Part shown: one piece after another, positions 6,106 through 38,546 of the stretch
How positions within the stretch are numbered: position 1 is the first letter of the stretch
Layout: every line of letters begins with the position of its first letter
NCBI GenBank assembly: GCA_018713245.1
Contig: DVFM01000034.1
Span: 3,835-67,834 of the forward strand
From: Candidatus Merdivicinus intestinavium
GTDB taxonomy: Bacteria > Bacillota > Clostridia > Oscillospirales > Ruminococcaceae
DNA: 64,000 nucleotides
Direction of reading: 5' to 3'
Notes under the pieces: model-generated
What the model saw: the letters and a program-made list of their open reading frames with translations, nothing else
What the model was told of the DNA's origin: nothing
The model's database searches: none
Program-made: the position numbers and the translations under genes

Positions 6106-7425
6106 TTGCATCAGGATTATCCCCTGAAACGGGAACAGATCGCGGACGGCGTTTATTTCGGCAGCATTGCCGACAGCCGTTTTAAAACCAATCTTTTGAC
6201 CTTGAACCTGACGGTGCCGCTTGCGCGGGAAACCGTCACGGAAAACGCGCTTTTGCCGCTGGTGCTGGAAAAATGCTGGGAGGAAGCGCCCACAAACCGG
6301 CAGCTTTCCAGGCAGCTGGCGCGGCTTTACGGCGCGTCGGTGGGGTCCGGCTCCATGAAGCTCGGCAATTCCCAGGTGCTGACCCTTTCCTACTCCGCCA
6401 TCGACAGCGCCTACGCCTTAAACGGCGAGGATCTTCTGGCGGAAGGGGCCCGCATCCTGACGGGGCTGCTTTTCCGGCCGGTTTTGAAAGACGGCCTGCT
6501 GGAGCCGGAAAACCTGGCCCTCCAGGTGCAGTACCTCATCGACTCCATCGAAGCGGAAATCAACGAAAAGCGCTCCTACGCGGTGGGGCAGACCATCAAG
6601 CGGATGTTTGAAGGGGAGCCCGCCGGGCTTCCGCGGCTGGGCTTTGCGGAGGACGCGCGGGGCATCACTCCCGCGTCGGAAACCGCCGCCTATGAGCGGG
6701 TGCTGCGGGAGGCGCAGGTGGAGATTCTCCACGTGGGGATGGGCGACCCTTCGGCGGCCCGGGAAATTTTTGCCGCGGCCTTTGCCGGAAAAGAGCGGCA
6801 GCCCGCCGGGCTGGTCCCTCTGGCCCTGGGAACCGCCCCCGGAACCCCCCGGCAGGAGACGGAGGAAAAGCCGGTGGCCCAGTCCAAGCTCTGCCTGGGC
6901 TTCCGCACCGGCGTGGACGCCCGCAGCCCCCGGCTCCCGGCCCTGCGGCTGATGTGCGCCGTGCTGGGCGGCTGCACCACCTCCAAACTCTTTCTGAACG
7001 TCCGGGAAAAGAGGAGCCTCTGTTATTACTGCGCCTCCCGCATCGACCGCATCCGCGGCATTATGCTCATCGACAGCGGCGTTGACCGGGAAAAGGTGGA
7101 GGAAGCGAAGGAGGCCATTCTGAACGAGCTGGAAGCGGTGCGCCGGGGGGATTTCACCGGGGAAGAGCTGGAATTCGCCCGCCTGAGCCTCCAGAATTCC
7201 TTCCGGTCGGTGGGGGATTCCGCGTCCGGGCTGGACTCCTTTTACCTGACCCAGACCCTGCTGGGCATCCCCGAAACGCCGGAGGACCAGGGGGAGCAGC
7301 TGGCCGGCGTCACCCGGGAAATGGTGATGGAAGCCGCCCGGGGCGTAACCCTTGACACGGTCTATCTGCTGACCGGCTCCGCATCCGGCGCGAAGGGAGG
7401 AAAATCAACATGCGAAAAACAGTAA
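6106..7425 (+). CDS. M16-family (insulinase-like) protein, non-catalytic subunit type (YfmF-like)
   Basis: 439 aa with a TTG start. M16 two-domain length and C-terminal blocks (SKLFLNVREKRSLCYYC). No HxxEH zinc motif anywhere in the protein. Confidence 0.75.
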   Translation: MHQDYPLKREQIADGVYFGSIADSRFKTNLLTLNLTVPLARETVTENALLPLVLEKCWEEAPTNRQLSRQLARLYGASVGSGSMKLGNSQVLTLSYSAIDSAYALNGEDLLAEGARILTGLLFRPVLKDGLLEPENLALQVQYLIDSIEAEINEKRSYAVGQTIKRMFEGEPAGLPRLGFAEDARGITPASETAAYERVLREAQVEILHVGMGDPSAAREIFAAAFAGKERQPAGLVPLALGTAPGTPRQETEEKPVAQSKLCLGFRTGVDARSPRLPALRLMCAVLGGCTTSKLFLNVREKRSLCYYCASRIDRIRGIMLIDSGVDREKVEEAKEAILNELEAVRRGDFTGEELEFARLSLQNSFRSVGDSASGLDSFYLTQTLLGIPETPEDQGEQLAGVTREMVMEAARGVTLDTVYLLTGSASGAKGGKSTCEKQ

Positions 7426-8702
7426 TCCGCAGCGAGCGGCTGGGGGAGGAATACCTGCGGCTGGAGCATGAATCCGGCCTCCGCATCCTGCTCTACCCCA
7501 TGAAGGGCTTTCGCACGGCTTACGCCGTTTTCGGGACCGATTACGGTTCCATTGACAACGAATTCCGGCTGGAAGGGGAGCGGGAGTTCCAGAAAGTGCC
7601 CGACGGCATCGCCCATTATCTGGAGCACAAGCTCTTTGAAAGCGAGGACGGCGACGCCTTTACCCTCTTTGCCCGCACCGGCGCCAGCGCCAACGCTTTT
7701 ACCTCCTTCGACAGGACCTGCTACGTTTTTTCCTGCACGGAGAACTTCGAGGAATCCTTCCGTTCCCTCCTCACCTTTGTCCAGGAGCCCTATTTTACTC
7801 CCGAAACGGTGGCCAAGGAACAGGGAATCATCGGCCAGGAAATCCGCATGTACGACGACAATCCCGGCTGGCGGGTGCTGTTTAACCTCCTGTCCGCCCT
7901 GTATGTCAATCATCCCATCCGCACCGACATCGCCGGAACGGTGGAGAGCATCGCCCAAATCACCGACAAGCTGCTCTACCGCTGCTACCGCGCTTTCTAT
8001 AATCTGTCCAACATGGCGGTGGCTGTGGCGGGGAATTTCGACCCCGCGGCGGCGGAGCGGATTCTGGAGGAGACGCTGAAGCCGCAGGCGCCGGTGAAAA
8101 TCGAGCGTCCCGCCGTCGATGAGCCGCCCCGGGCCGCCAAGCCGGAGGCGGTGCAGCGCCTGGACGTTTCGGAGCCGCTTTTCTATTTCGGCTATAAGCT
8201 CTCCCCGGACCCGGACCCCAGGCGGGAACTGCGGCATCAGGCGGTGCTCAATATCCTGTTGGACGTCCTGGCCGGCCCCGCCAGCGATTTTTACGAGGAA
8301 ATGAACCGCAAGGGGCTTCTGAACGCCGCCTTCGGGGCGGAGGTGTTCGGGGGGCGCGGCTATCTCGCCGCCCTTTTCGGAGGGGAATCCCGGGACCCGC
8401 GGGCCGTTTACGCGGCCTTCTGCCGGATGCTGGAAGAAAAGCAGCGGACCGGCCTGTCGGAGGAGGATTTCCTCTGCTGCAAAAACGCCCTTTACGGGCG
8501 GTCGCTCCGGGACATCAACGACGTGGAGGCGGCCGGCGACGCCCTGTTTGCTTATGAGCTGATGGGGCTGGGGCTGTTTGACCTGCCGGAGCTCATCGCG
8601 TCGGTGGAGCTTTCGGACCTGGAACGGTCGCTGCGGGAGGATTTCCGCCCCGACGCCCGGGCAATCTCCATCATCCTGCCCATGGATGCCGCTTCGGAAT
8701 GA
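7410..8702 (+). CDS. M16-family zinc peptidase, catalytic subunit type (YfmH-like)
   Basis: 430 aa. HxxEH motif present (GIAHYLEHKLFE). Overlaps the preceding M16 gene by 16 nt. Confidence 0.8.
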   Translation: MRKTVIRSERLGEEYLRLEHESGLRILLYPMKGFRTAYAVFGTDYGSIDNEFRLEGEREFQKVPDGIAHYLEHKLFESEDGDAFTLFARTGASANAFTSFDRTCYVFSCTENFEESFRSLLTFVQEPYFTPETVAKEQGIIGQEIRMYDDNPGWRVLFNLLSALYVNHPIRTDIAGTVESIAQITDKLLYRCYRAFYNLSNMAVAVAGNFDPAAAERILEETLKPQAPVKIERPAVDEPPRAAKPEAVQRLDVSEPLFYFGYKLSPDPDPRRELRHQAVLNILLDVLAGPASDFYEEMNRKGLLNAAFGAEVFGGRGYLAALFGGESRDPRAVYAAFCRMLEEKQRTGLSEEDFLCCKNALYGRSLRDINDVEAAGDALFAYELMGLGLFDLPELIASVELSDLERSLREDFRPDARAISIILPMDAASE

Positions 8703-8749
8703 CCGCGGGAACACCCCGGCGTCCGATTCGTCTGATAATTTTTTACTAG

Positions 8750-9913
8750 GTGGTGCATGTTTCAGTGAACACAGCAATCCTCAACACGGTCGAATTCCCG
8801 AAACTGGGCTTGGAATTTGAATTCGACTCCATCGCGTTTTCCATCGGCAACATCCATATTGCATGGTACGGAATCCTGATAGCGGCCGGCATCCTGCTTG
8901 CCATGGCCTTCGGCATATCCCAGTGCAAGCGCTTCGGCATCATCGCCGACAAACTGATGAACGCGGCCCTGGGCGGCGTAATCGGCGGCATCGTCGGCGC
9001 GCGGCTTTACTATGTGATCTTTTCCTGGGACAATTACAAGGACGACCTGATGAGCATTTTCCACACCTGGGAGGGCGGCATGGCCATTTACGGCGGCCTC
9101 ATCGGCGGCCTGGGCGTCGGCCTGCTGGTGGCAAAGCTCTGCAAAATCCGCATCCGCCCGGCGCTGGACGTGGCGAGCATGGGCTTTCTGATCGGCCAGT
9201 GCATCGGCCGGTGGGGGAATTTCATCAACGTGGAGGCCTTCGGCGGAAACACCGACCTGCCCTGGGGCATGACCTCCCCCACCATTACCGCTTACCTGCG
9301 GGAGCATATGTCCGAACTGGGCGAGCTGGGCATGAATATTGACCCTTCGGCGCCGGTTCATCCCTGCTTCCTTTATGAATCCCTCTGGTGCGCGCTGGGA
9401 TTCCTGCTGCTGTTCCTTTACCGGAAGCACCGGAAGTTCGACGGCGAGATTTTCCTGATGTACAGCGTCTGGTACGGCGCCGGCCGGTTTGTCATCGAGG
9501 GCCTGCGCACCGACAGCCTGCTCATCGGCACCATCCGGGTTTCCCAGCTGCTGGCCGGGCTGGTGGTTGTGGCCGGCGTCATCCTTTGGATTGTCATCCG
9601 CAGCCGCATCCGCACCCGTCACGACCCGGAATACCTCAAGCTCTACGTCAACACCGAAGCCTACCAGCAGGAGCTGGCGGATTATGAGGCAAAGCTCCGG
9701 AAATCCAAGGACAAATCCGGAAAGAAGAAAAAATCCGGCAAGGGCTCCGAGGACAACGGGGTTGAAGTTGTGGACCTGGGGAGCTTTTCCGGCGAAGAAA
9801 CGGTGAGCGAGCCGGTGGACGACGGAACCCGGGTTGCCGGAGAAGAGCCGCCTGCGGAAAATACCGCGGAGGAAAGCAAAGCGGACGGACAGGAATCGGA
9901 GGGAACGGAATGA
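8750..9913 (+). CDS. lgt: Prolipoprotein diacylglyceryl transferase with a long charged C-terminal extension
   Basis: Lgt blocks present: [48 protein letters not shown] start, exact start uncertain. The last ~100 aa are Lys/Glu/Ser-rich. Confidence 0.85.
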
Positions 9914-10767
9914 GCAATCTGATTGACGGGAAGGCGATTGCCGCCCGGGTGAAGGAAGAAGTGGCAAGGGAAGCCGCCGAATTGGCGCAGCGCGGCATCC
10001 GGGCGGGGCTCGCCGTCGTCATTGTGGGAGACGACCCCGCTTCCCGCATCTATGTCAACAACAAAAAGAAGGCCTGCGAGGCCTGCAATATCCGGTCTTA
10101 CGAGTACGCGCTGCCCGAAAGCACCTCGGAGGAGGACCTGCTGGCGCTGGTGGAAAAGCTCAACGCCGATCCCGCCGTCAGCGGCATTCTGGTTCAGCTC
10201 CCGCTGCCGCGCCAGATTTCGGAGCAGAAGGTCATCGCCGCGATTTCCCCGGAAAAGGACGTGGACGCCTTCCACGCGGTCAATGTGGGGAAAATCATGA
10301 TCGGCGATTTCGACTTCCTTCCCTGCACGCCGGCCGGCTGTCTGGAGCTCATCGATTCCACCGGCGTTTCGGTTGAAGGGAAGCGCTGCGTAGTCATCGG
10401 GCGCAGCAACATCGTGGGCAAGCCCATGGCCATGCTGCTGCTCCACCGGAACGGCACCGTCACCATCTGCCATTCCAAAACCCGGGGACTCCGGGAAATC
10501 TGCCGGGAGGCGGACATCCTGGTGGCGGCCGTGGGAAAACCGAAATTTGTGACGGCCGATATGGTCAAGGAAGGCGCGGTGGTTATCGACGTGGGGATGA
10601 ACCGGCTGGAAAACGGGAAGCTCTGCGGCGATGTGGATTTTGACGCCGTGCGGGAGGTTGCCGGGTGGATTACGCCGGTTCCCGGCGGAGTCGGCCCCAT
10701 GACCATCGCCATGCTGATGCGGAACACCCTTTCCGCGGCAAAGCTTCAGAATCGGGTGCAGGCATGA
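9910..10767 (+). CDS. folD: Bifunctional methylenetetrahydrofolate dehydrogenase/cyclohydrolase
   Basis: [11 protein letters not shown]..., [40 protein letters not shown]. The ATG overlaps the lgt stop (ATGA). Confidence 0.9.
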
Positions 10768-10810
10768 AACGCGCGTTTCGGGTCCTGCCCGGTAAAGGAG
10801 GAAACTGGAT

Positions 10811-12706
10811 TTGAGAGAAACTCTGTGCATGGGATGCATGCGGGACAAGGGGGAGGCCGTCGTCTGCCCTTACTGCGGCTATGAAGAGGGAACGCCTCAA
10901 TACGCCGCTTACCTGCCGCCCCGCACCATGATCGACAGCCGGTATCTGGTGGGGCGCGTGCTCAGCTACAACGGAGAAGGCGTCCTGTACATCGGCTACG
11001 ACTGCATGAGAGGGGAGCGGGTGGACATCCGGGAATTTTTCCCGGATACCCTTGCGGTCCGGGACGCGGACGGCCGGACCGTCCGGGTGCTGGACGGCCG
11101 CCAGATTCCCTTTAAAGCCAATATGAGCGATTATACGGAGATTTTGGGAAAGCTCATCCGGATGCGGACGCTCTCCTGCGTGGTGCAGGTTTTGGGCTGG
11201 GTGGAAGCGAACAACACGGTCTATGCGGTGCTGGAGCATGTGGAGGGGCTTCCGCTCCGGGAATATCTGCTGCGGAAGGGCGCCATGCTCAGCTGGCAGG
11301 AGACTTCCGACCTGCTGCTGCCCGCCATCCGGACCCTGAGCCTGCTGCATCAGGACGGGATTCTGCACCGGGGCTTAAGCGCCGACACGGTCTTTGTGAC
11401 GGCGCAGAATACCGTCAAAATCGGCGGCTTTGCGGTCAGCGCCGTCCGGGCCGCCCGGACCGAGCTGGCGGCGGAGCTGTTTCCCGGTTATTCGGCGCCG
11501 GAGCAGTATTCGTCGGTGAACCCCCACGGCCCGTGGACCGACGTTTATGCCGTCTGCGCGCTTTTGTACGCCTGCCTGACCGGACAGCGGCCGCCGGAAG
11601 CGCTGATCCGCTCGGCGGATAAGGAACTGATGCCGCCCCGGGAGCGCAACGAAACGGTGCCCGCTTATGTCTCCGACGCGATTTTGCAGGGGCTGGAGCT
11701 GGACGCCCGGAAGCGGATTCAGACCATGGACCAGCTGGCCGACGCCATAACCGGCGCCCCCTCCCAGCCGATTGTGGTCGTCCCGGCGGCCGAGCCCGCC
11801 GTGGCGGAGACGGAAACGGAGGAACCCATTCAGATTCCCCCGGTCCGCCGCCCCTCCTTCAAGAAAAAGGAGGAGAAGGAGGAAAAAACGGCCTATTACC
11901 GGCCGGCCTCCTCCCCCGCAACCCACACCCTGACCCCGGAGGAAGCGGAGGGCCGGGAGGCGGAGCGCCGCCGTTCCCGGAAGCTGGTGCTCAACAGCAT
12001 GCTGATCGCCCTTCCCATTCTGCTGCTGGCGCTGATTATCTCCTTCTGGCTGCTTTTCGGCGGCCGGGACAGCGGCCGGCAGGAAGAAGAGTCCTCCGAG
12101 CCCAGCCTGGCTTCCGAGGAATGGCTGGTGTCCTCTTACCCGGACGAGGAGTCCGGCGTGCAGTCCCGGGACGAATCTTCCCGGGAAGAATCCTCCCGCG
12201 AGGAATCGTCGGAACCGTCCCGCGAAGAATCCTCCGGAGAGGAATCCTCCGCCGCCGAATCGTCCCGTGCGGAATCTTCGGCGGAAAGCAGCGAAGCCGC
12301 CATCTTTATGGAAAACTTTGTGGGCCAGAAATACGCCGACGTGGTGGCCAGCGCGGAGTATAAGGACGTCTATATTTTCGCAACTCCGACCTACGAGTAC
12401 AGCGAGGACTATGAGGAGGGCGTCGTGATGGACCAGGACATTACGCCCGGTCTGGAAATTACGGCGGGCACCCGGGTCAACCTGACCGTCAGCCGGGGCA
12501 GCCGCTATATCCGTCTCCCCAGCTACGAAAAGCAGACGGAACAGGCTTATACAGCCCGGCTCGCCAGCCTGGGCGTCCCCTATGTCGTCGTCTACCGCGA
12601 GGACGACAACTATCCCAGCGGGTATGTGGTGGGCCTGAGCGTCAGCGACAACCTGTATGACATTACCAGCGGCGCGACTGTGGAGGTCTATGTCTCCCAG
12701 GAATAG
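10811..12706 (+). CDS. Zinc-ribbon / degenerate Hanks-type kinase (predicted pseudokinase) / TM / PASTA-repeat membrane protein
   Basis: 631 aa. AAGGAGG lies 9 nt before TTG 10811; an alternative ATG is at 10829. Contains CMGC...CPYC, a kinase-like fold with SAPE and DVYAV blocks but VDIRE, HRGLSADT and GGF where VAIK, HRDxKxxN and DFG are expected, TM helix LVLNSMLIALPILLLALIISFWLLF, a Ser/Glu spacer, and two PASTA-like repeats. Confidence 0.8.
   Translation: MRETLCMGCMRDKGEAVVCPYCGYEEGTPQYAAYLPPRTMIDSRYLVGRVLSYNGEGVLYIGYDCMRGERVDIREFFPDTLAVRDADGRTVRVLDGRQIPFKANMSDYTEILGKLIRMRTLSCVVQVLGWVEANNTVYAVLEHVEGLPLREYLLRKGAMLSWQETSDLLLPAIRTLSLLHQDGILHRGLSADTVFVTAQNTVKIGGFAVSAVRAARTELAAELFPGYSAPEQYSSVNPHGPWTDVYAVCALLYACLTGQRPPEALIRSADKELMPPRERNETVPAYVSDAILQGLELDARKRIQTMDQLADAITGAPSQPIVVVPAAEPAVAETETEEPIQIPPVRRPSFKKKEEKEEKTAYYRPASSPATHTLTPEEAEGREAERRRSRKLVLNSMLIALPILLLALIISFWLLFGGRDSGRQEEESSEPSLASEEWLVSSYPDEESGVQSRDESSREESSREESSEPSREESSGEESSAAESSRAESSAESSEAAIFMENFVGQKYADVVASAEYKDVYIFATPTYEYSEDYEEGVVMDQDITPGLEITAGTRVNLTVSRGSRYIRLPSYEKQTEQAYTARLASLGVPYVVVYREDDNYPSGYVVGLSVSDNLYDITSGATVEVYVSQE
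12085..12300 (+). repeat. Ser/Glu-rich low-complexity coding repeat (GAATC[CGT]TC-type triplet units)
   Basis: Encodes ...EEESSEPS...DESSREESSREESSEPSREESSGEESSAAESSRAESSAESSEA between the TM helix and the PASTA repeats. Confidence 0.7.
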
Positions 12707-13589: not shown

Positions 13590-14705
13590 ATGAAGGTACT
13601 GATTTTGTCCTGCCATACCGGCGGAGGTCATGACGCGGCGGCCGCCGCCCTGGCGGAAGGTTTCCGCCTGCTGGGACACACGGCGGCGGTGCAGGACTTT
13701 TTCGCTCTGCGGAGCGAGCGGGCGGCTTCGGCTGCGTCGAGCCTTTATGTGGGGACGGTGAACCGTTCTCCCCAGCTTTTTCACGCCCTTTACCAGGTTG
13801 GGTCGGCAATCAGCAGCGCGCGGCGGCACAGCCCGGTTTATTATGTCAACGTCTGGTTTGCGCCGTCGCTGGAGGCGAAGCTCAAGGCGGAACGGTTTGA
13901 CCTGGCGGTGACCACCCATATTTTCCCCGCCCACGCTTTGACCTGGCTAAAGGCAAAGGGCCGGATTCAGATTCCCGCAGCCGGCGTGATGACCGACTAT
14001 ACCTGCATCCCCTTCTGGGCGGAGACGCGCTGCGAGGCGTACGTGACGCCCCACCCCTCGCTGACAGAGGAAATCGCGGGGAAGGACCTCCCCCGGGAAG
14101 CGCTCCTTCCCCTGGGAATCCCGGTATCCCCTTCCCTCGGCAGCGCGCCGGCGGACCGGCAGGCGCTGGGGATGGAGGAAGGAAGGCCGCTGATCGTCCT
14201 TCTGTCCGGGAGCATGGGACACGGCGACCTGGTGCCGGTGGTGGACGCGCTGCTGCAAAAGGGCGGCAGCGCACCGCAGATTGCGGTAATTACCGGGCGG
14301 AACGAGGAACTTCGGAAGGACCTGTCCCGCCAGTATTCCGCCGTTCCGCAGGTGCAGGTCAAGGGATATGAGAAGATGGGGCCCTGGCTTCGGTGCTGCG
14401 ATGTGCTGATTACCAAGCCGGGCGGCCTTACCGTCACGGAGGCGGCGGCCATGCGGGTGCCGCTGGTGCTGAGCAACGCCATTCCGGGCTGCGAGACGGA
14501 GAACCAGCGGTTTTTCGTTTCCCGCGGCATGGCCCTGGCGCCGGATACGCCGGCGGAACAGGCCGAAGCGGCGCTCCGGCTCTGCCGGGATGCGGAGGAA
14601 CGGGACCGGATGCGCGCCGCGCAGGCAGAGGCGATCCGCCCCGATAATGCGGTTCAGATCTGCCGTGCGCTGGCAGAAAAGTTCGGAGGGATGCTCCATG
14701 CGTAA
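13590..14705 (+). CDS. MGDG-synthase/GT28-family diacylglycerol glycosyltransferase (UgtP-like)
   Basis: Start moved to ATG 13590, preceded by AAGGAGG. N-terminal MKVLILSCHTGGGHDAAAAAL and a C-terminal GT28-like KPGGLTVTEAAAMRVPLV block. Confidence 0.75.
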   Translation: MKVLILSCHTGGGHDAAAAALAEGFRLLGHTAAVQDFFALRSERAASAASSLYVGTVNRSPQLFHALYQVGSAISSARRHSPVYYVNVWFAPSLEAKLKAERFDLAVTTHIFPAHALTWLKAKGRIQIPAAGVMTDYTCIPFWAETRCEAYVTPHPSLTEEIAGKDLPREALLPLGIPVSPSLGSAPADRQALGMEEGRPLIVLLSGSMGHGDLVPVVDALLQKGGSAPQIAVITGRNEELRKDLSRQYSAVPQVQVKGYEKMGPWLRCCDVLITKPGGLTVTEAAAMRVPLVLSNAIPGCETENQRFFVSRGMALAPDTPAEQAEAALRLCRDAEERDRMRAAQAEAIRPDNAVQICRALAEKFGGMLHA

Positions 14706-15390
14706 TGTTTATTGGATGTTGGGAGGCGGGATTCTGCTCGCCTTTCTGAGCGGCAGCGTGCTCTACAGCTCGATTCTGCCCCGCGCGCTCAGCAAAAAGG
14801 ACATCACCCGCATGTCCGACGACGGGAACCCCGGCGCGTTCAACGCCTTCCGCTACGCCGGCAAAGCGGTGGGCGCCCTCTGCCTGGTGTGCGATATTTT
14901 GAAGGGGGCGCTGCCGGTGATGCTGATGAGCCCGCTGTATCTGCGGCACCCGGCGCTGTTCGGGGCGCTGATTGCAGCCCCCGTTTTCGGCCACGCTTTT
15001 TCCCCCTTTGCCGGGATGCACGGCGGGAAAGGAATCGCCGTTTCCTTCGGGGTTATGCTGGGACTGTTTCCGCAGTTTCCGGAGCTTGTCTGGCTGATTG
15101 TCCTTTACCTTGGGTTTTCCCTGGTGATACGGGTGGACCCGAATCAGTGGCGCTCCGTCCTGACGTTTACCGCCTTCGCCCTGCTGGCTTTGCGGTTTGA
15201 GGAATATTTCGGAATGCGTCTGGGCGTGCTGCTGGTCTGCGCCGCGGTTTTGTACCGCCACTGCTTCGGACTGCACCGCCAGGCGATGCAGATCAGCCTT
15301 TTCCGCCGGAGATTGGTGACGCTGCGTTCCCTTCAGGAAATGGTGGAACGGCGGAGGGCGCAGAAGGACTGTTTTTCCAAGCGCCAGTGA
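14698..15390 (+). CDS. plsY: PlsY-family glycerol-3-phosphate acyltransferase (divergent)
   Basis: Start at ATG 14698, preceded by GGAGGG and overlapping the upstream gene by 8 nt. Blocks DGNPGAFNAFRYAG, CDILKGALPV and GHAFSPF..GGKGIAVSFG parallel the PlsY GNxGATN / KG / GHxFP..GGKG motifs. Confidence 0.7.
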   Translation: MRNVYWMLGGGILLAFLSGSVLYSSILPRALSKKDITRMSDDGNPGAFNAFRYAGKAVGALCLVCDILKGALPVMLMSPLYLRHPALFGALIAAPVFGHAFSPFAGMHGGKGIAVSFGVMLGLFPQFPELVWLIVLYLGFSLVIRVDPNQWRSVLTFTAFALLALRFEEYFGMRLGVLLVCAAVLYRHCFGLHRQAMQISLFRRRLVTLRSLQEMVERRRAQKDCFSKRQ

Positions 15391-16230: not shown

Positions 16231-16256
16231 AGTGATATGGAGGGGAGATGAGGACG

Positions 16257-16757
16257 ATGGTACAGGAAAAGCCGGTGCTGATTACAAGCATGGCCTCTCG
16301 GGCGCAGATCCGGGTCTGTTCTGAAAAAGGGCAGGCTCTTGCCGGATTTGTGACAAACGAGTTCCTGAACCTGACGGTGTCTTTCCGCGACGTCGTGGAG
16401 CTGCTGGCCATTTTGGAGCAGACTTTCGATTTTCTCTCCTTCCCGCAGACAACGCTGTCATATCGCTCCTTCCGTCCCGCGTCCCGCCGGGGGAAAGGGC
16501 GGCGTCCGAGGAAAGCAGGTGTCCGATTGATGGAAAAAAATCCGAAGGAACCGGAGCGCGGTGAAAAGGCGACGTTTCTGGTTCACGTTCAGTTCCGCCA
16601 GCATGCAACCTGGCAGGGGAATATTACCTGGGTGGAAAAAGGCGTCACCCAGCAGTTCCGCAGCGCGCTGGAAATGCTCCGCCTGATGAACGAGGCGGTG
16701 GAGGGCGAGGACAGCGCCCAGGTCCGTTTCGAGGACGGAAAACCCTTTATTGAATAA
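16257..16757 (+). CDS. Uncharacterised protein with two internal repeats separated by a basic linker
   Basis: Track ORF is 16248-16757; ATG 16257 has better spacing from GGAGGGGAG. Ordinary amino-acid composition. Repeat ends VSFRDVVELLAILEQ and QQFRSALEMLRLMNEA. Linker RPASRRGKGRRPRKAGVR. Confidence 0.65.
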   Translation: MVQEKPVLITSMASRAQIRVCSEKGQALAGFVTNEFLNLTVSFRDVVELLAILEQTFDFLSFPQTTLSYRSFRPASRRGKGRRPRKAGVRLMEKNPKEPERGEKATFLVHVQFRQHATWQGNITWVEKGVTQQFRSALEMLRLMNEAVEGEDSAQVRFEDGKPFIE

Positions 16758-16865: not shown

Positions 16866-18275
16866 TTATTTGGCGGCAGCGCCGCCGGTGTTGGGAAGCT
16901 GGAGCGTCAGCTCGAAAAAGCTGCCCTTTCCGAGGGTGCTCTCCAGATTGAGGGTGCCGTGGTAGAGGCTCACCAGGTGCTTGACAATGGAAAGCCCCAG
17001 CCCGGTGCCGCCGATGCCCCGGCTGCGCCCTTTGTCCACCCGGAAAAACCGCTCGAATACCCGGGATTTCATCTCCTCCGGAATGCCGATGCCGGTATCC
17101 CGGACGCCGATGCGGAGAATGTAGCCGTCCGTTTCAATCCGGACCCAGACGGAACCGTTTTCCACGTTGTACTTGACGGCGTTCTGCATCAGGTTTGCAA
17201 GAAGATTGTACAGGTGGCTGTAGGGAATGGCAATCTGGAAATTCCCGCCGGAAATTTCCATTTTGATGCCTTTGGCGCGCATATCCGGCTCCAGGGTCTC
17301 CCGGATTTCATTGGCCACCTCCAGCGCGTTGATGGGCGGCGCTTCGGTGGGTTCATCCTCGTTTTCCATCTTGGAGATGAACAGCAGGTCGTTGATAATC
17401 CGGGACATCCGGGCAGCCTCCCGGCGAATGATGCGGACGCTTTGGGTCATCTGTTCCGGATCGGAAATCAGCCCCTGCTCCATCATTTCCGAAAAGCCCA
17501 GAATGGAGGTGATGGGGGTGCGGAGTTCGTGGGAAGCGTTGGAGAAGAAGTCTTGGCGCTGCTGGAGAGCGCTGCGTTCGGCGGTGACGTCCAGCAGCAG
17601 AATGAGGATGCCGACGCGCCGGCGGGGCTCCTCCTGGCGGACCTGGCGGATCTGGATGGAGAAAATCCGGCCGTCGGGGAGATGCATGTCAAAGGGCGTC
17701 ACCTCTTCCCCCTTGAGGATGGAGGCAGTGCGCTCCAGAATGCGGCGGCTGTGGACCGCTTCCTTGAGCTCCTTGTTTTCCGCAGCGTCCGGGATGCCCA
17801 GAAGCTGCTGGGCAATGTGGTTGTAGGCCAGAACATGCTGCTTCTGGTCCAGCAGGACAAAGCCCTCCTTCAGGCTGGAAAAGATGAAGCGGAAGCGGTT
17901 TTCCCGAGCCTGGAGGCGGTAGCGCGCCAGCACCAGCCGGCTGCACAGGCCGCGGATCTCCTGGCAGAGGTCGGAAACCTCCACCGTCATGTTGTGCTGG
18001 ATGGGGTGAAAGACAAAGCGTTCCTGCTCCTCCCGAAGGAGCTTGGTGACAAGCTGAATCTCCTGACGCTGTTCCCGCTCCGCATCCCGGGTGAGGGAGC
18101 GCGCCAGAACAATCGCGAGAAGAACCAGCAGCGCTGCCGCCAGAACAATCCAGAGGACGGTGTGCAGCACGCCGCCGGCATTCCATGCGCCTGCGGCGGC
18201 CAGCGCGGCGCCCGCCCCCAGCAGCGCAGCACAGAGGCAGCGGAGAAACGGGCTGTTGACGAGGGGCTGTTTCAT
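16866..18275 (-). CDS. phoR: PhoR-like sensor histidine kinase
   Basis: Start moved to ATG 18275 (MKQPLVNS), preceded by GGAGGG. Two N-terminal TM helices, H-box FFSNASHELRTPITSILGF, and HATPase N/G boxes (NLMQNAVKY, DTGIGIP, GGTGLGLSIVK). Sits next to pstSCAB and an OmpR-type regulator. Confidence 0.8.
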   Translation of the reverse strand: MKQPLVNSPFLRCLCAALLGAGAALAAAGAWNAGGVLHTVLWIVLAAALLVLLAIVLARSLTRDAEREQRQEIQLVTKLLREEQERFVFHPIQHNMTVEVSDLCQEIRGLCSRLVLARYRLQARENRFRFIFSSLKEGFVLLDQKQHVLAYNHIAQQLLGIPDAAENKELKEAVHSRRILERTASILKGEEVTPFDMHLPDGRIFSIQIRQVRQEEPRRRVGILILLLDVTAERSALQQRQDFFSNASHELRTPITSILGFSEMMEQGLISDPEQMTQSVRIIRREAARMSRIINDLLFISKMENEDEPTEAPPINALEVANEIRETLEPDMRAKGIKMEISGGNFQIAIPYSHLYNLLANLMQNAVKYNVENGSVWVRIETDGYILRIGVRDTGIGIPEEMKSRVFERFFRVDKGRSRGIGGTGLGLSIVKHLVSLYHGTLNLESTLGKGSFFELTLQLPNTGGAAAK

Positions 18276-18308
18276 AAACGGCCCTCCTTTCCGGCAGGGG
18301 GTTGCCAT

Positions 18309-25175: not shown

Positions 25176-25598
25176 GTGCTGATCGGCGAGTATCCCTGCA
25201 TTGTCGACGTGAAGGGCCGTCTCAATTTTCCCGCAAAGCTCCGGGAGGATCTGGGGGAACGCTTCCTTTTGTCCAAAGGCCTGGGCGACCGCTGCCTGTG
25301 CGTCTATTCCCTGGAAGAATGGGAGCGGCGCCGGCAGAAGCTGTCCTCCCTCCCGTCCGCCGAAATGTACGCGCTCCAGCGTTACCTGTTTTCCAGCGCC
25401 GCCGAGGTGGAGCCGGACAAGCAGGGGCGGATCGTCATCCCCCAGGTGCTCCGGGATTTTATCCAGGTGGAGCGGGATGTGATGGTGGTCGGCGCAGACA
25501 ACCGCTGTGAAATCTGGACCAAAAAAGACTGGGAGGAAACCCAGCAGCAGCTGAGCCCCGAATACATCCGGAGCCTTATCCAAAAGGCGGGCTTCTGA
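25176..25598 (+). CDS. mraZ: Transcriptional regulator MraZ
   Basis: GTG start. Two SpoVT/AbrB-like halves. Blocks VDVKGRLNFPAKLR and DKQGRIVIPQVLR. Confidence 0.9.
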   Translation: MLIGEYPCIVDVKGRLNFPAKLREDLGERFLLSKGLGDRCLCVYSLEEWERRRQKLSSLPSAEMYALQRYLFSSAAEVEPDKQGRIVIPQVLRDFIQVERDVMVVGADNRCEIWTKKDWEETQQQLSPEYIRSLIQKAGF

Positions 25599-25622
25599 GG
25601 GGCCCCGCGGAAGGAGGAAGGT

Positions 25623-26564
25623 ATGGAGTTTCAGCATATTCCGGTCATGCTGGAAGCCTGCATGGACGGGCTGAATATCCGGCCGGACGGGATTTATGTG
25701 GACGGGACGGCCGGCGGCGGCGGGCATTCCTCCGAGATTGCGCGCAGGCTGAAGGGCGGGCGTCTCATCGCCCTGGACCAGGACCCCGACGCGGTGGCCG
25801 CCGCTTCGGAACGGCTGGCGGAGTTTCCCCAGGCGCAGGTCGTCCGGGCAAACTTCCGCGATATGCGCCAGGTGCTGGACGGGCTGGGAATTGCCCGGGC
25901 GGACGGAATCCTGCTGGATTTGGGGGTTTCGTCCCATCAGCTGGACACCGCGGAGCGCGGGTTTTCCTACCTGAAGGACGCCCCGCTGGACATGCGAATG
26001 TCTCAGGAGGGGCCCAGCGCGAAGGATTTGGTCAATTCGGCCCCGGTTTCCGAACTTGCCCGCATCCTGCGGGAGTACGGGGAGGAGAAATTCGCTCTGC
26101 GCATCGCCCAGAATATCGCCCGGCGGCGGGAGGAAGCCCCCATCGAGCGGACGCTGGAGCTGGCGGAGATTATCAAAGCCTCCATGCCCGCGGCGGCGCG
26201 GCGGGAGAAAAACCCCTGCAAGCGTTCCTTCCAGGCGCTGCGGATCGCGGTAAACTCGGAACTGGACGCGCTTTCCCAGGGGATTGACACGGCGTTCGAT
26301 TCCCTGGCGGAGGGAGGAAGGCTCTGCATCATCACCTTCCACTCGCTGGAGGACCGGATGGTCAAGCAAAAATTCGCGGCGCTGTGCCGCGGCTGCATCT
26401 GCCCGCCGGATTTCCCGGTCTGCGTCTGCGGCCACACCCCGGAGGGCCAGCTCCCCACCCGGAAGCCCATCCTCCCCGACGAAAATGAGCTGGCGGTCAA
26501 CCGCCGCAGCCAGAGCGCAAAGCTCCGGATCATCGAAAAAATCAAGGACCGTCAGCCGGACTGA
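25623..26564 (+). CDS. rsmH: 16S rRNA (cytosine1402-N4)-methyltransferase
   Basis: HIPVMLEA, DGTAGGGGHS, DLGVSSHQLD, FHSLEDRMVK. AAGGAGGAAG RBS. Confidence 0.9.
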   Translation: MEFQHIPVMLEACMDGLNIRPDGIYVDGTAGGGGHSSEIARRLKGGRLIALDQDPDAVAAASERLAEFPQAQVVRANFRDMRQVLDGLGIARADGILLDLGVSSHQLDTAERGFSYLKDAPLDMRMSQEGPSAKDLVNSAPVSELARILREYGEEKFALRIAQNIARRREEAPIERTLELAEIIKASMPAAARREKNPCKRSFQALRIAVNSELDALSQGIDTAFDSLAEGGRLCIITFHSLEDRMVKQKFAALCRGCICPPDFPVCVCGHTPEGQLPTRKPILPDENELAVNRRSQSAKLRIIEKIKDRQPD

Positions 26565-26607
26565 CCGCCCTTGCGGAATGTGACGACAGAAATGAGGCGT
26601 TTTTCGT

Positions 26608-27057
26608 ATGACACAAAAGTCCAACCTGGCTTATGATCTGCAGCGCTTTGAAGAACGGGCGCCGGAAACCAATGTGCGGGCCAGCATTACGGTCCGCCGG
26701 GAAAGAACGGTCCATCCGGTCAAAATTATCGCGGTGGCCGTCCTGGCGCTGATGATGGGGTTTACCCTCCTGTACAGCAGGGTGGTAATCACCGAGCTGA
26801 ACAGCCAGATTGCCGAAAAGCAGGCTGAGCTGGAAACGCTCAAGGCGGAAAACGTCCGGATGCAGACAGAGCTGGAAGGGCGGATGTCCCTGACGGAGAT
26901 TGAAAACACGGCCGTCGGGGAATACGGCATGGTCAAGCCCGACAACTCCCAGGTGAGCTATGTCCAGCTGGAGCAGGAAAACAAGCTGGAGGCCGCCGAG
27001 AAGGAAGAGAATATTTTTGAGAAAATCGTCAATTACGTCAAGGATCTGTTCCGGTAA
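26608..27057 (+). CDS. ftsL: Cell division protein FtsL-like
   Basis: Position between rsmH and the PBP gene. One TM helix followed by a coiled coil (ELNSQIAEKQAELETLKAEN). Confidence 0.65.
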   Translation: MTQKSNLAYDLQRFEERAPETNVRASITVRRERTVHPVKIIAVAVLALMMGFTLLYSRVVITELNSQIAEKQAELETLKAENVRMQTELEGRMSLTEIENTAVGEYGMVKPDNSQVSYVQLEQENKLEAAEKEENIFEKIVNYVKDLFR

Positions 27058-27118
27058 AGCGCAGCGCTCCCGGACAGGCCGGGCTTGCGAAAATACGGCC
27101 GGTAATTTGAAAAAGGCT

Positions 27119-27147
27119 GCATAAAAAGGCGCGCGATTCCATACATA
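27119..27147 (+). promoter_or_regulatory. Candidate sigma-E-type promoter upstream of the class B PBP gene
   Basis: GCATAAA, exactly 14 nt, CATACATA, about 75 nt upstream of ATG 27221. Good match to the sigma-E consensus as I recall it (xxATAxx-14-CATACAxT). Confidence 0.45.
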
Positions 27148-27220
27148 TCAAATGGCGGGAGGTTGAGATGGAAAAGTCTTAACCTCTTCTTGTTATCATG
27201 AATGAAAGGGGAAGTGAAGG

Positions 27221-29488
27221 ATGGCGGACGGAGCGGGGAAAAAGCTGAAGCTGCGGACCATTGCGATCTGCTGTTTCATGGTGTTGTTATTAAGCTGGGT
27301 TTTATATAACCTGGTGTACAGATCCCTCGTCACCGGAGAAGAGCTGAAGGCCCGTGCAGCGGAGCAGCAGCTCCAGGACGTGAGCATTACGGCGAACCGC
27401 GGGACAATCTATGACAGCAATATGAACGTGCTGGCCCAGAGCGCCACGGTCTGGGATGTCATCCTTTCACCCAAGGATTTTTATGCGGCGAAAAACGAAC
27501 TGAAAGGCGAGAACGGCGAGGCGGCCACCCAGGCGGAAAAGGACGCCTACGAACGCACCATGATCGAGGGGCTGGCCGAGATTCTGGATGTGGAAACCTC
27601 CTCCATCGAGGAGCATCTGACCCACACCGAGAGCATGTACCGGGAAATCAGCCGCAAGGTGGTCAAAAGCGTTGCCGACGAGGTGACGGCTTTCGTAGCG
27701 GAAAACGACATCGCCGGCGTTTACCTCCAGGTCAACACCAAACGGTTTTACCCCTACGACGACCTGGCTTCCAGCGTCATCGGCTTTACAAACTATGACA
27801 ACCAGGGCGTCTACGGCCTGGAGGCGGAATACGACGAGGTCCTCTCCGGCACCCCGGGGCGGCAGATTTCCGCCAAAAACGCGGTGGGCGAAACCATGCC
27901 CACCACCTATGAGCAGTATTATCCCGCCCAGGACGGGAATTCCCTGGTCCTCACCATCGACCAGGTCATCCAGCATTACCTGGAAAAGACGCTGGACGCC
28001 ACCATCGCCCAGCATAAGCCGGCAGAGGGCGCGGCGGGCATCGTCATGGACGTCAACACCGGCGCTATCCTGGCTATGGCTTCCATGCCCAATTACGACC
28101 TGAACGAGCCCTATATTATCACCGACGAGGCCGCTGCCGCCGCCATCGACGCCATGGAGGACGGCGAAGTCAAAACCGAGGCCCTTGCCGCCGCCCGGGA
28201 AAAGCAGTGGAAAAACAAAACGGTTACCGACATCTATGAGCCTGGCTCCGTGTTCAAGGTCGTGACGGCCTCCGCGGCGCTGGAGGAGGGCGCGGCCACC
28301 GTCAATTCTACCTACAACTGCACCGGGTCGGTGATGGTGGACGGGTGGCCCTATCCCATCCACTGTCACGACCACGCGGGCCACGGGCTCCAGAACTTTA
28401 CCGAAGCGGTGGTCAATTCCTGCAACCCCGCCTTCATCTCCATCGGCCAGGCGCTGGGTTCCGGGCGGTTTTTCCGCTATTTTGACGCCTTCGGCCTGAC
28501 CGAGCGCACCGGCATCGACCTTCCGGCGGAAGCCCAGAACAGCTACTATACCGAAGAACGGCTCAACGCCGTCAGCCTGGCTTCCTGCTCCTTCGGACAG
28601 TCCAACACCGTCACCCCCATCCAGATGATTACGGCGGCCTCCGCCGCTGTCAACGGCGGAAAACTGCTGACGCCGCACGTTGTCAGCAAAATTCTCGACT
28701 CGGATGGGAATACGGTAGAGGAATTCGGCACAGAGGTCCGCCGCCAGGTGATTTCGGAGGAAACTTCCGAGACCATGTGCGGCATCCTGGAACAGGTGGT
28801 TTCCGCCAACGGCGGCACCAACGCCTACGTGAAGGGCTACCGCATCGGCGGCAAATCGGGCACCGCCCAGAAGCTGAACAAGGAAGAGGACGTCTACATC
28901 TACTCCTTCTTCGCTTTCGCGCCGGTGGACGACCCGCAGGTGGCCTGCCTCATTCTGGTGGATGAGGCGACGTCCGGCGCCTCCTACGCGAATACGGTTG
29001 TGGCCCCCGCGGTCGCTTCCCTGATGGCGGACCTGCTGCCCTATCTGGGCGTGCAGCCCCAGTATTCCGAGGAGGATGAAAAGACCCAGGACGTCAGCGT
29101 CCCCGGCGGCCTGATCGGGCGGGATTCCGCCACGGCGGAAAGCCGGCTGCTGGCCCAGGGCCTTGACTGCACCGTTATCGGCAGCGGCACCGACGTGGTG
29201 AGCGTCTATCCCGAATCCGGCACCAAGGTGGCCGGCGGGAGCACCGTAATCCTTTACACCGACGACCGCGATATGGAAACCGTGACGGTGCCGGACGTTG
29301 TGGGGCTCACGCCGTCCCAGGCGAACCAGCAGCTCACCAACGCGGGCCTGAACATCCGCATTACCGGCGGCGCCGCCCAGAACACCAGCGCCCGGGTCGC
29401 AAGCCAGGACACCGAAGCGGGCTCCACGGTCCCCAGGGGGACGGTGGTCACCATCGAGTGCCTGATCCAGGGCGAGGACGGGGAGTAA
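27221..29488 (+). CDS. spoVD: Class B penicillin-binding protein with two C-terminal PASTA domains (SpoVD/PBP2B type)
   Basis: Transpeptidase motifs SVFK (SxxK), SCN (SxN) and KSGT (KTG-like). Two PASTA repeats at the C-terminus. The gene symbol rests on the sigma-E-like promoter and position; the product class is secure. Confidence 0.85.
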   Translation: MADGAGKKLKLRTIAICCFMVLLLSWVLYNLVYRSLVTGEELKARAAEQQLQDVSITANRGTIYDSNMNVLAQSATVWDVILSPKDFYAAKNELKGENGEAATQAEKDAYERTMIEGLAEILDVETSSIEEHLTHTESMYREISRKVVKSVADEVTAFVAENDIAGVYLQVNTKRFYPYDDLASSVIGFTNYDNQGVYGLEAEYDEVLSGTPGRQISAKNAVGETMPTTYEQYYPAQDGNSLVLTIDQVIQHYLEKTLDATIAQHKPAEGAAGIVMDVNTGAILAMASMPNYDLNEPYIITDEAAAAAIDAMEDGEVKTEALAAAREKQWKNKTVTDIYEPGSVFKVVTASAALEEGAATVNSTYNCTGSVMVDGWPYPIHCHDHAGHGLQNFTEAVVNSCNPAFISIGQALGSGRFFRYFDAFGLTERTGIDLPAEAQNSYYTEERLNAVSLASCSFGQSNTVTPIQMITAASAAVNGGKLLTPHVVSKILDSDGNTVEEFGTEVRRQVISEETSETMCGILEQVVSANGGTNAYVKGYRIGGKSGTAQKLNKEEDVYIYSFFAFAPVDDPQVACLILVDEATSGASYANTVVAPAVASLMADLLPYLGVQPQYSEEDEKTQDVSVPGGLIGRDSATAESRLLAQGLDCTVIGSGTDVVSVYPESGTKVAGGSTVILYTDDRDMETVTVPDVVGLTPSQANQQLTNAGLNIRITGGAAQNTSARVASQDTEAGSTVPRGTVVTIECLIQGEDGE

Positions 29489-29511
29489 TCCCGGCTTGAG
29501 GAGGAATATCG

Positions 29512-30951: not shown

Positions 30952-30983
30952 AGGAATTTCGGACAGATAAAGGAGGCTTCCCT

Positions 30984-32351
30984 TTGGAAACAATGCAGCT
31001 TCGGCAGATAGCCGCGGCAGTCGGCGCGGAATGCGGCGAGGACCGCCCGATCACCGATGTGGTGACCGATACCGCGCAGGTGACGCCGGGCAGCCTGTTT
31101 GTCGCCCTGAAGGGCGAACGGTTCGACGGGCACGATTTCATCCCCAAGGCGGCGGAAGCCGGCGCGGCGGCCGTATTGAGCGAAAAGCCGCTGGATGCCG
31201 GCATCCCGGTGCTGGAGGTCCCCTCCACCCGGAAGGCGCTGGTGGAGCTGGCCCGCTATTACCGGGGGCTGTTCCACACCTTCGTTGTGGGGGTGACGGG
31301 CAGCGTGGGCAAGACGTCCACCAAGGACATGATCTGCGCGGTATTGCAGCAAAAAGGCAAGACCCTCAAAACCCTGGGCAATCTGAACAACGACATCGGC
31401 CTGCCCAAAACCCTGTTCCGGCTGGATTCCAGCTATAAAAACGCGGTCATTGAAATGGGCATGTCCCACATGGGGGAGATTGCGGTCCTCACCCGGGCGG
31501 CGCGGCCGAACGTGGGGGTCATTACCAACATCGGTGTTTCCCACATTGAAAACCTGGGCAGCCGGGAGAACATCCTGCGGGCCAAGCTGGAAATTACCGA
31601 GGGGATGAGCTCCAACGCGCCGCTGGTCCTCAACGCCGACGACAAGCTGCTGGCCGAGGTATATAACCAGGTGGAACGGGACATCATTTATTATGGAATT
31701 GACTCCGGCGCGGCGGACGTCCAGGCCTGCAACATTGCGGAGCAGGACGGCTCCACCGTCTTTAATGTGCGCTTTTACGGCAAAACCGTCACCGCCATGA
31801 TTCCCGTCCTGGGGAAACACAACGTTTACAACGCCCTGGCGGCCTTTTCGGTGGGGCTGGCGGCGGGGATGTCGCCGGCCGACATCGTGATGGGGCTGCG
31901 CGGCTACGAACCCACCGCCATGCGCCAGGACATTCACCATCTGGACAACGGCATGACGGTCATCGTGGACTGCTACAACGCGAGCCCCGATTCCATGAAA
32001 GCCTCCCTGAGCGTGCTGGGCTCCCTTCCCGCAAAGCGCCGGGTGGCGGTTCTGGGGGAAATGCTGGAGCTTGGGGACTACTCTGCCGAAATGCACCGGC
32101 AGGTGGGCCGGTACGCGGTGGAAAACCACGCCGACGCCCTTTTCTGCTACGGTTCCCACGCCGCCGAAATGCTGGAAGGGGCCCAGGCGGCGGGACACCT
32201 CTACTGCCGCAGCTTCGACACCAAGGAGGAGATGGCGGACTACCTGAAGCTCTGGCTCAAGCCCGGCGACGCCGTCCTTTACAAAGGCAGCCGGCGGCTC
32301 CGGCTGGAGGAAGTCGTTTCGGAGGTCCACGGCATCCCCGCCGGCCATTGA
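30984..32351 (+). CDS. murF: UDP-N-acetylmuramoyl-tripeptide--D-alanyl-D-alanine ligase
   Basis: TTG start 7 nt after AGGAGG. GVTGSVGKTSTKDM, NNDIGLP, EMGMSHMGEI. Confidence 0.9.
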   Translation: METMQLRQIAAAVGAECGEDRPITDVVTDTAQVTPGSLFVALKGERFDGHDFIPKAAEAGAAAVLSEKPLDAGIPVLEVPSTRKALVELARYYRGLFHTFVVGVTGSVGKTSTKDMICAVLQQKGKTLKTLGNLNNDIGLPKTLFRLDSSYKNAVIEMGMSHMGEIAVLTRAARPNVGVITNIGVSHIENLGSRENILRAKLEITEGMSSNAPLVLNADDKLLAEVYNQVERDIIYYGIDSGAADVQACNIAEQDGSTVFNVRFYGKTVTAMIPVLGKHNVYNALAAFSVGLAAGMSPADIVMGLRGYEPTAMRQDIHHLDNGMTVIVDCYNASPDSMKASLSVLGSLPAKRRVAVLGEMLELGDYSAEMHRQVGRYAVENHADALFCYGSHAAEMLEGAQAAGHLYCRSFDTKEEMADYLKLWLKPGDAVLYKGSRRLRLEEVVSEVHGIPAGH

Positions 32352-38538: not shown

Positions 38539-38546
38539 AACAAAAG

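Follow-up and report, generated by a model that had tools for sequence, protein, structure and literature searches.

Can a protein laid out like a PASTA kinase act as a receptor of the cell wall when its kinase domain no longer holds the residues needed for phosphate transfer? This question is raised by a gene in a 64,000-nucleotide stretch of DNA from Candidatus Merdivicinus intestinavium, a member of the Ruminococcaceae (contig DVFM01000034.1; the whole of this 64-kb stretch is called the window below), which encodes a protein with a zinc ribbon, a kinase-like domain, a transmembrane (TM) helix and PASTA repeats. In Gram-positive bacteria, PASTA kinases have a central role in the control of wall synthesis, division, beta-lactam tolerance and spore germination, and it is debated what share of their function needs phosphotransfer and what share could be met by PASTA-dependent localisation or scaffolding alone. 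A first-pass annotation, read by eye from the sequence, had proposed a PrkC-like membrane topology combined with a dead Hanks-type core. Pfam, pairwise and structural alignments, together with a confident AlphaFold2 (AF2) model, agree with that proposal, and the family to which the protein belongs looks like a natural, conserved kinase-dead PASTA receptor, which would be a ready-made separation-of-function experiment.

The protein is composed, from the N- to the C-terminus, of a four-cysteine zinc ribbon, a Hanks-type kinase fold, a single TM helix, a Ser/Glu-rich linker and two PASTA repeats, and this five-part architecture is established by profile searches and structure prediction (Table 1). 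The Pfam Pkinase profile (PF00069) scored 58.6 bits against a cutoff of 31.7 over residues 121-304 and thus placed the domain among kinase folds; its match spans profile positions 57-253 only, and the N-lobe is therefore divergent. HMMER comparison with the sequences of solved structures gave PpkA as the best match (5hnv, E 8e-24), with PknB at E 2e-14 (3f61). The AF2 model, built from 70 family members, had predicted local distance difference test (pLDDT) values above 90 for residues 1-320 and of 95-98 for residues 497-631, falling below 50 in the juxtamembrane part and the linker. When this model was searched with Foldseek, PpkA was again the best match (5x1r), with a TM-score normalised to the target (TMt) of 0.79, followed by PknB and Stk1 at 0.77-0.78 and PknA at no more than 0.78, so that superposition on PknB-type kinases upheld the kinase fold read by eye.

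A protein search of 5.8 billion sequences returned 775 matches, and the alignment counts given here refer to the best 120 of these. Each of the four zinc-ribbon cysteines was found in 112-117 of the 120 homologues, and the ribbon is also present in catalytically active relatives; the CxxC...CxxC knuckles had been noticed in the first-pass annotation, although the spacing between them is nine residues and not ten. Residues 392-417 form the sole stretch with a Kyte-Doolittle hydropathy above 1.6 in a 19-residue window, and the basic cluster RRRSRK immediately before them would, by the positive-inside rule, place the N-terminus inside and the C-terminus outside. The spacer that follows (residues 417-496) contains 26 Ser and 22 Glu among its 80 residues and is not conserved in the family consensus. 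Pfam recognised PASTA in two stretches (61.1 bits, E 1e-16), in line with the two repeats originally described, and among solved structures their sequence comes closest to the S. aureus PASTA-kinase ectodomains 3py9 and 3m9g (E 1e-8).

The fate of the catalytic residues was read from two kinds of alignment. HMMER placed the beta3 segment rvdIREffP opposite tiaIKEymP of PpkA, the catalytic loop HRGLSADT opposite HRDISLDN of PpkA and HRDVKPAN of PknB, and the DFG region KIGGFAV opposite KVMDFGI of PknB, and a MAFFT alignment that included PknB gave the same equivalences (K40 with R74, D138 with G188, N143 with T193 and D156 with G206). Because the alignments to PpkA and PknB put the same residues in the four catalytic columns (Lys, Asp, Asn and Asp, hereafter K/D/N/D), they confirm that the changes of Lys to Arg74, Asp to Gly188, Asn to Thr193 and Asp to Gly206 are real and do not stem from a register error. 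The first-pass annotation had itself named a wrong by-eye register as one way in which it might fail, and no K/D/N/D set was found in those columns by profile alignment. Its reading of the VAIK Lys as Arg holds for R74, while two of its other readings needed adjustment. In the catalytic loop the losses of Asp (G188) and Asn (T193) stand, but Ser190, in the position of the HRDxK Lys, had been counted as a further loss, whereas PpkA and all active relatives (HRDISPDN) also have Ser there, so that Ser190 is ancestral and no evidence of inactivation. Similarly, the Asp of DFG is indeed lost, but its remnant, G206-F207-A208, starts one residue after the GGF originally proposed.

The Gly-rich loop, S-Y-N-G-E-G in the query as against G-x-G-G-F-G in active relatives, retains one of the three canonical glycines and is degenerate, as had been claimed; its Asn54 and Glu56 are nevertheless themselves about 90% conserved within the pseudokinase clade (86% and 91%, respectively), at positions where the active relatives have Gly and Phe in all six compared. 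The column of the alphaC Glu, a change that the first-pass annotation had not noticed, holds Ile in the query, while 71% of the family have Leu there; the position just before it is acidic. A recent kinase atlas defines a pseudokinase by the loss of at least one of the VAIK Lys, the HRD Asp and the DFG Asp (bioRxiv 10.1101/2025.01.12.632604), and in the query all three are substituted.

The substitutions are fixed across a large family. Kinase Pfam domains were present in all 120 homologues and PASTA in 116, the four others being short and probably truncated sequences; HRG was found in 120 of 120, Ser190 in 116 and Gly206 in 98. An exhaustive HMMER search of 1.84 billion cluster representatives yielded 6,622 proteins at E <= 1e-30, and among 137 further representatives from the top 150 (clusters at 50% identity) about three quarters of the kinase modules had Gly or Ala at the HRD Asp. 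A genome scan covering one genome per GTDB species gave at least 575 confirmed places, from which 80 loci were kept for locus counts; Gly or Ala occupied the HRD Asp position in 74 of these 80 loci, all from different genomes, and the remaining six encode canonical kinases in which K/D/N/D and a GGFG loop are intact and which share the zinc ribbon. Nearly all of the 80 loci are labelled Oscillospiraceae, Ruminococcus, Acutalibacteraceae or unclassified Clostridia. The named hosts include Bittarella massiliensis, Fumia xinanensis, whose protein is 47% identical to the query, and Ruminococcus callidus ATCC 27760, a cultured type strain in which hypotheses on this family can be tested. In public annotation the members are called only 'protein kinase domain-containing protein' or 'PASTA domain-containing protein'.

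The other catalytic positions are less uniform than the HRD Asp. The DFG Asp is absent from about 80-85% of the family and the VAIK Lys from about 70-75%, the beta3 column being Arg in 62%, Lys in 26% and His in 6%. Within the pseudokinase clade Thr193 is conserved in 73%, with the catalytic-loop Asn kept in 17%, and Gly206 in 74%, with the DFG Asp kept in 14%; Arg213 reaches 96%, Thr/Ser217 90% and the APE Glu 100%. Across 70 sequences with 31-81% identity to the query there are 36 invariant columns, and the non-catalytic fold is under purifying selection. The C-lobe is strongly constrained, the clade having kept the APE motif, the WTD of alphaF, a PPEAxxR segment and R302, and the His-Arg of HRD, the Phe of DFG and the zinc ribbon are kept as well, while R44, N54, E56, W162, R213, Thr/Ser217 and P284 are conserved in the pseudokinase clade only, a pattern that suggests a new function.

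This family arose within a lineage of active kinases. For convenience we speak of the zinc-ribbon Hanks kinases of Clostridia, an informal grouping recognised by an N-terminal CxxC-x(9-10)-CxxC, I[KR]E[YF]xP after beta3, HR[DG][IL]S and GxWTD[VI]Y in alphaF; the query has every one of these motifs and shares them with active K/D/N/D relatives. PpkA, which works in type VI secretion in Gram-negative bacteria, resembles the query and the clostridial kinases in I[KR]E[YF]xP after beta3, HR[DG]IS and GPWTD[IV]Y in alphaF, but has no zinc ribbon in the aligned region. Unlike the query, both PpkA and the active clostridial zinc-ribbon kinases retain K/D/N/D and the GGFG loop. In a neighbour-joining tree, crude, without bootstrap and rooted on PknB, all HRG and HRA sequences fell into one clade nested among the active zinc-ribbon kinases, as would be expected had the catalytic Asp been lost once and the Lys, the Asn and the DFG Asp then decayed to varying degrees. 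The ectodomains differ as well, since the active relatives carry TcaA NTF2-like, TPR, Big_6 or leucine-rich-repeat domains, with PASTA in one of them (L070), whereas PASTA was present in all six pseudokinase members scanned, the query and five others.

The same zinc-ribbon family also includes polypeptides in which modules of zinc ribbon plus kinase stand in tandem, with active (K/D/N/D) and degenerate modules mixed (P0121, P0153, P0229, P0246 and P0248). Of the four modules in P0121 two are active and two dead, and P0153 has one active and one HRA-type dead module followed by a TM helix and leucine-rich repeats; at a further locus (L066, 4466-13575) four active kinase genes lie in tandem. That active and dead modules are paired time and again suggests that the two kinds work together.

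Whether the fold could still hold ATP was judged from the adenine pocket, by comparison with 22 active modules in which the pocket residues are conserved in 82-100%. At beta2 position 58, where active relatives have Ile or Val, the pseudokinase clade has Ala, Val or Ile; the VAIK Ala (position 72) is Ala in active relatives, variable in the clade and Asp in the query; and the gatekeeper (position 141), Met in active relatives, is Phe, Tyr, Leu or Ser in the clade. With the adenine-pocket residues relaxed, the alphaC Glu lost and a Glu at the tip of the Gly-rich loop, ATP binding has probably been lost along with catalysis.

From these results we infer the ligand, the partner and the physiological role, and we give a probability of about 0.6 to the following reading: the protein is a PASTA-mediated receptor for wall precursors or muropeptides whose Hanks fold, dead as a kinase and probably free of nucleotide, signals by contacting other proteins; it may partner an active Hanks kinase or be its substrate. 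It would be a single-pass membrane receptor belonging to a conserved family nearly confined to Oscillospirales-type Clostridia. Outside, the two PASTA repeats, held off the membrane by the flexible acidic Ser/Glu linker, would bind lipid II or a muropeptide, a peptidoglycan-derived ligand being suggested by homology to the PASTA ectodomains of PknB, PrkC and Stk1. Lipid II or muropeptides are bound by the PASTA ectodomains of PknB (PMC6428115), and peptidoglycan fragments are sensed by PASTA kinases (PMC7286690). Inside, the zinc ribbon would pack on a Hanks fold incapable of phosphate transfer and, because phosphate transfer is lost and ATP binding probably so, the signal would pass through contacts that the intact C-lobe and the activation segment make with other proteins. 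One likely form is that the protein partners or regulates an active Hanks kinase, or serves it as a decoy substrate, perhaps through phosphorylation of the conserved Thr/Ser217; that kinase could be a canonical PrkC or one of the active zinc-ribbon paralogues. The conserved hydroxyl residue of the activation segment and the retained Arg of HRD suggest that this segment may be phosphorylated in trans. The other likely form would be a scaffold for cell-wall or division proteins. The first-pass annotation had proposed allosteric or scaffolding signalling, which is a plausible reading.

Several points weigh against this reading. Ligand binding by the PASTA repeats is assumed from their homology, and no conserved neighbour points to a partner, de novo clustering of the ORFs (open reading frames) flanking the 80 loci having produced no cluster present in more than 10. 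The residues of the PknB back-to-back dimer interface are only partly kept, R10 corresponding to R44 (94%), L33 to a variable column and D76 to an Asp in 64% of members, although to Gly in the query. Moreover, some pseudokinases defined by sequence still bind ATP or catalyse other reactions, 88% of members are basic at beta3 (26% with Lys), the DFG Asp or the Asn persists in 14-17%, and in principle the conserved Asn and Glu of the Gly-rich loop could belong to an unconventional active site.

The alternative that survives best, doubtful as it is, holds that the protein binds a nucleotide without catalysis, bound ATP setting the conformation to which partners respond, in the manner of some eukaryotic pseudokinases. 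The basic beta3 residue in most members, the one remaining glycine of the Gly-rich loop and the retained DFG Phe would be consistent with such a switch, and ATP binding has been argued for the DYD and DLHK pseudokinase families despite loss of the Lys (PMC12599244). However, the relaxed adenine pocket, with Asp72 at the VAIK-Ala position in the query, and the replacement of Phe by Glu at the tip of the loop both speak against a nucleotide site.

Slightly less probable still is an unconventional but active enzyme, in which nucleotide-dependent chemistry would proceed through relocated residues (Asn54/Glu56, the beta3 Arg/Lys and Arg213). Relocation of the Lys is seen in WNK, and SelO and SidJ carry out other chemistries on a kinase fold. 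The high conservation of N54 (86%), E56 (91%) and R213 (96%) in the clade and their absence from active relatives are what such an enzyme would display, as are a basic beta3 residue in 88% of members and the retention of the His-Arg of HRD, the Phe of DFG and the APE motif. Against this, none of the 120 homologues has a carboxylate at the position of the catalytic base, the Mg ligands Asn and Asp are gone in most members, the alphaC Glu is lost, and the VAIK Ala, the gatekeeper and the beta2 Ile have been relaxed to the point of admitting charged residues, which is the opposite of a conserved nucleotide site. In a related form of the idea, which we likewise consider unlikely, Asn54/Glu56, the beta3 Arg, Arg213 and Thr/Ser217 would make up a rebuilt active or ligand site, the protein being a PASTA-gated enzyme or a small-molecule receptor whose chemistry or ligand is something other than ATP-dependent phosphorylation; along with it goes the thought that the protein might have replaced canonical PrkC as the only PASTA receptor in some Oscillospirales, and were that so, wall sensing by PASTA receptors could work without kinase activity.

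There is little room for the view that the protein is a canonical PrkC/PknB orthologue, active or recently decayed, whose changes were exaggerated by a by-eye alignment. The likeness to PASTA kinases (M. tuberculosis PknB, B. subtilis PrkC, S. aureus Stk1/PknB and S. pneumoniae StkP; NF033483) is certainly broad, with the same topology (Hanks fold in the cytoplasm, single TM helix, PASTA repeats outside the cell), a fold at TMt 0.77-0.78 to PknB and Stk1, PASTA repeats nearest to the S. aureus kinase ectodomain, and the Stk1-family PASTA kinase model as the best NCBIfam match. That match, however, reached 153.8 bits against the equivalog cutoff of 450 for NF033483, which places the query outside the family; the nearest solved relative is PpkA and not PknB, and the zinc ribbon with the IxE[YF]xP and GxWTDxY motifs ties the kinase domain to another lineage. 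Thus the term 'PrkC-like' used in the first-pass annotation is apt for the topology but not for the kinase lineage, which is that of the zinc-ribbon Hanks kinases. Further differences from PASTA kinases are that K/D/N/D, the alphaC Glu and most of the Gly-rich loop are replaced, that no PP2C gene is adjacent (such adjacency being typical, although not strictly defining), that an operon context of the stp/rsgA type is lacking, and that there are two PASTA repeats where PASTA kinases usually have three or four. Substitutions that are fixed in hundreds of sequences, at identities as low as about 30%, are not accounted for by recent decay, and with the profile score, the PpkA and PknB alignments and the family-wide HRG we consider a canonical orthologue refuted. 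Least probable of all, and refuted for practical purposes, is an anti-phage defence kinase of the PD-T4-6 or MADS MAD6 type, as the PADLOC PD-T4-6 models (best E 4e-28) and mad6 were matched through generic similarity in the kinase domain only, the NCBIfam MADS6 score of 85.7 bits lies far below its 460-bit cutoff, the required catalytic residues are absent, the ectodomain is PASTA and the flanks hold housekeeping and envelope genes with no defence island.

Returning to the kinase-dead receptor, its best functional precedent, by analogy, for a dead kinase acting beside PrkC is CD2148 of C. difficile, a C-terminally membrane-anchored atypical kinase without the catalytic-loop Asp and Asn, for which no autophosphorylation was detected, which is phosphorylated by PrkC in vitro, and which modulates cell separation as well as the degree to which the hydrolase CwlA is phosphorylated in a PrkC-dependent manner (PMC9674922, PMC8262956). 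Compared by published description only, CD2148 and the query are both clostridial, membrane-anchored Hanks folds that have lost the Asp and Asn; CD2148, however, has no PASTA ectodomain (PMC8262956) and, judging from the residue numbering of S134 and S139, no N-terminal zinc ribbon.

For bacterial pseudokinases, an atlas and a review list seven families, ActPs1-3, GLW, CP1, DYD and DLHK (bioRxiv 10.1101/2025.01.12.632604; PMC12599244), and the atlas assigns PASTA to the canonical KAPD family only (bioRxiv 10.1101/2025.01.12.632604). These families (with MviN among ActPs1-3), and also EssB/YukC, resemble the query in having a Hanks fold, conserved loss of catalytic motifs and in many cases a C-terminal TM anchor, but none is described as a Firmicutes HRG family or as linked to PASTA. 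The DYD family keeps HRD and has DYD for DFG and a beta3 Arg (PMC12599244), so that the query, with HRG and G-F-A, shares the beta3 Arg only; the proteobacterial GLW family has GLW for HRD and a poly-Leu beta3 (PMC12599244), in contrast to HRG and V-D-I-R-E in a clostridial protein; and the ActPs families are actinobacterial, whereas the query family is clostridial. No protein combining PASTA with a pseudokinase was found described in the searchable full-text literature, and for this large family of gut Clostridia (Oscillospirales) no matching description was found there or in the readable pseudokinase catalogues. It would lengthen the short list of bacterial pseudokinase families by one that belongs to the Firmicutes and is linked to PASTA, and it suggests that abundant gut commensals regulate Hanks kinases by way of partners.

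Table 1. Features of the pseudokinase gene and its product. Positions are those of the 64-kb window; residue numbers are those of the protein.
Feature	Position	Strand	Basis
Coding sequence, 631-residue zinc-ribbon/pseudokinase/TM/PASTA protein	10811..12706	+	ORF list; TTG start; stop codon included
Ribosome-binding site AAAGGAGG	10796..10803	+	read from the sequence; 7 nt upstream of the TTG start
Intrinsic terminator, GC-rich hairpin followed by UUUUUU, just 3' of the stop codon	12712..12760	+	folding
N-terminal zinc ribbon, C6-x2-C9-x9-C19-x2-C22, cytoplasmic	10826..10876	+	Cys conservation; pLDDT 89-95
Pseudokinase domain, residues ~40-315, Hanks-type fold	10928..11755	+	Pfam, PDB sequence matches, AF2, Foldseek
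Altered Gly-rich loop, Y53-N-G-E-G-V-L-Y60	10967..10990	+	active relatives have x-G-G-F-G-[IV]-T-Y
Arg74 in the beta3 VAIK Lys column	11030..11032	+	aligned to the Lys of PpkA IKE and K40 of PknB
Catalytic-loop remnant, H186-R-G-L-S-A-D-T193; Gly188 at HRD Asp, Thr193 at Mg-binding Asn	11366..11389	+	alignment to PknB and PpkA
Activation segment, G206-F-A208 (DFG remnant) to A229-P-E231; holds clade-specific R213 and T217-E218	11426..11503	+	alignment to PknB
Disordered juxtamembrane segment, residues 320-391, Pro/Glu/Lys-rich, ending in RRRSRK	11768..11983	+	pLDDT <50 for 332-374
Single TM helix, residues 392-417, predicted N-in/C-out	11984..12061	+	hydropathy; AF2 helix 376-416
Extracellular (predicted) Ser/Glu-rich low-complexity spacer, residues 417-496	12059..12298	+	composition; pLDDT <50
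Two extracellular (predicted) PASTA repeats, residues ~497-562 and 563-631	12299..12703	+	Pfam PASTA; pLDDT 95-98

The gene itself is confirmed. A protein 100% identical to the query (P0001) was found on eight independent contigs from several sequencing runs, on which gene callers give the same 631 residues, and the G+C content at third codon positions is 0.80, similar to that of adjacent genes. As the first-pass annotation had stated, the gene has its own ribosome-binding site and terminator. The terminator hairpin folds at -37.7 kcal/mol (z = -4.37), a stability reached by none of 200 shuffled sequences; it is missed by a simple terminator pattern scan, the loop exceeding the limit of that scan, and was found by folding. 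The ribosome-binding site lies inside the 43-nt gap between the folD stop codon and the pseudokinase ORF. Because a promoter scan of this gap revealed no sigma-70-like site, co-transcription with lgt-folD is possible even though the gene has signals of its own.

Upstream of the pseudokinase lie genes for an M16-like peptidase and an M16 peptidase, lgt and folD (window 6106-10767, + strand), and downstream follow an MBL-fold hydrolase, an MGDG-synthase-like glycosyltransferase, plsY and an HMA-domain gene. The order M16-M16-lgt-folD-pseudokinase is kept in the closest relatives (L001, 5267-10000; Fumia xinanensis, L081, 4994-9564) but not in more distant family members, one of which sits among unrelated housekeeping genes, and with the upstream order lost in distant members no operon partner is indicated. 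In agreement with the first-pass annotation, no PP2C phosphatase gene was present among the ten flanking genes, and no such partner of the stp/prpC type lies beside the Fumia xinanensis gene or a distant member either. No second kinase was detected in the window by phmmer with the domains of the query or by tblastn with PknB.

In Fumia xinanensis a gene for SpoIIE, the PP2C-type sporulation phosphatase, lies about 650 bp downstream of the pseudokinase in convergent orientation (L081, 12443-14749, - strand), with prophage-like integrase, helix-turn-helix and antirepressor genes beyond it. SpoIIE was considered as a partner and rejected, since neither the window nor any of the other 80 loci contains it, and its adjacency is taken as coincidental; no evidence was found that links the pseudokinase to sporulation.

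About 12.5 kb downstream of the pseudokinase the window holds a complete division and cell wall (dcw) cluster (25176-39820, + strand) in the order mraZ, rsmH, ftsL/divIC, class B penicillin-binding protein (PBP), murE, murF, mraY, ftsW, murG, murA, ftsQ and ftsZ. The class B PBP (27221-29488) is the second PASTA protein of the window, with two PASTA repeats by Pfam. These were missed by phmmer with the PASTA region of the pseudokinase, a failure of sensitivity which indicates that the two PASTA sets are divergent.

A scan of the whole window against Rfam gave no family at gathering score, and no tRNA, rRNA or riboswitch was detected by it. The mechanically called plsY ORF (14590-15390, + strand) overlaps the preceding glycosyltransferase gene by 116 nt, and gene calls on the identical contigs give PlsY a later start (230 residues, from about 14697), with which most of the overlap disappears. 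Further along, a 169-residue ORF without a Pfam match (16248-16757, + strand) has gene-like codon bias and is adjoined by a histidine-kinase gene that converges on it (16866-18308, - strand).

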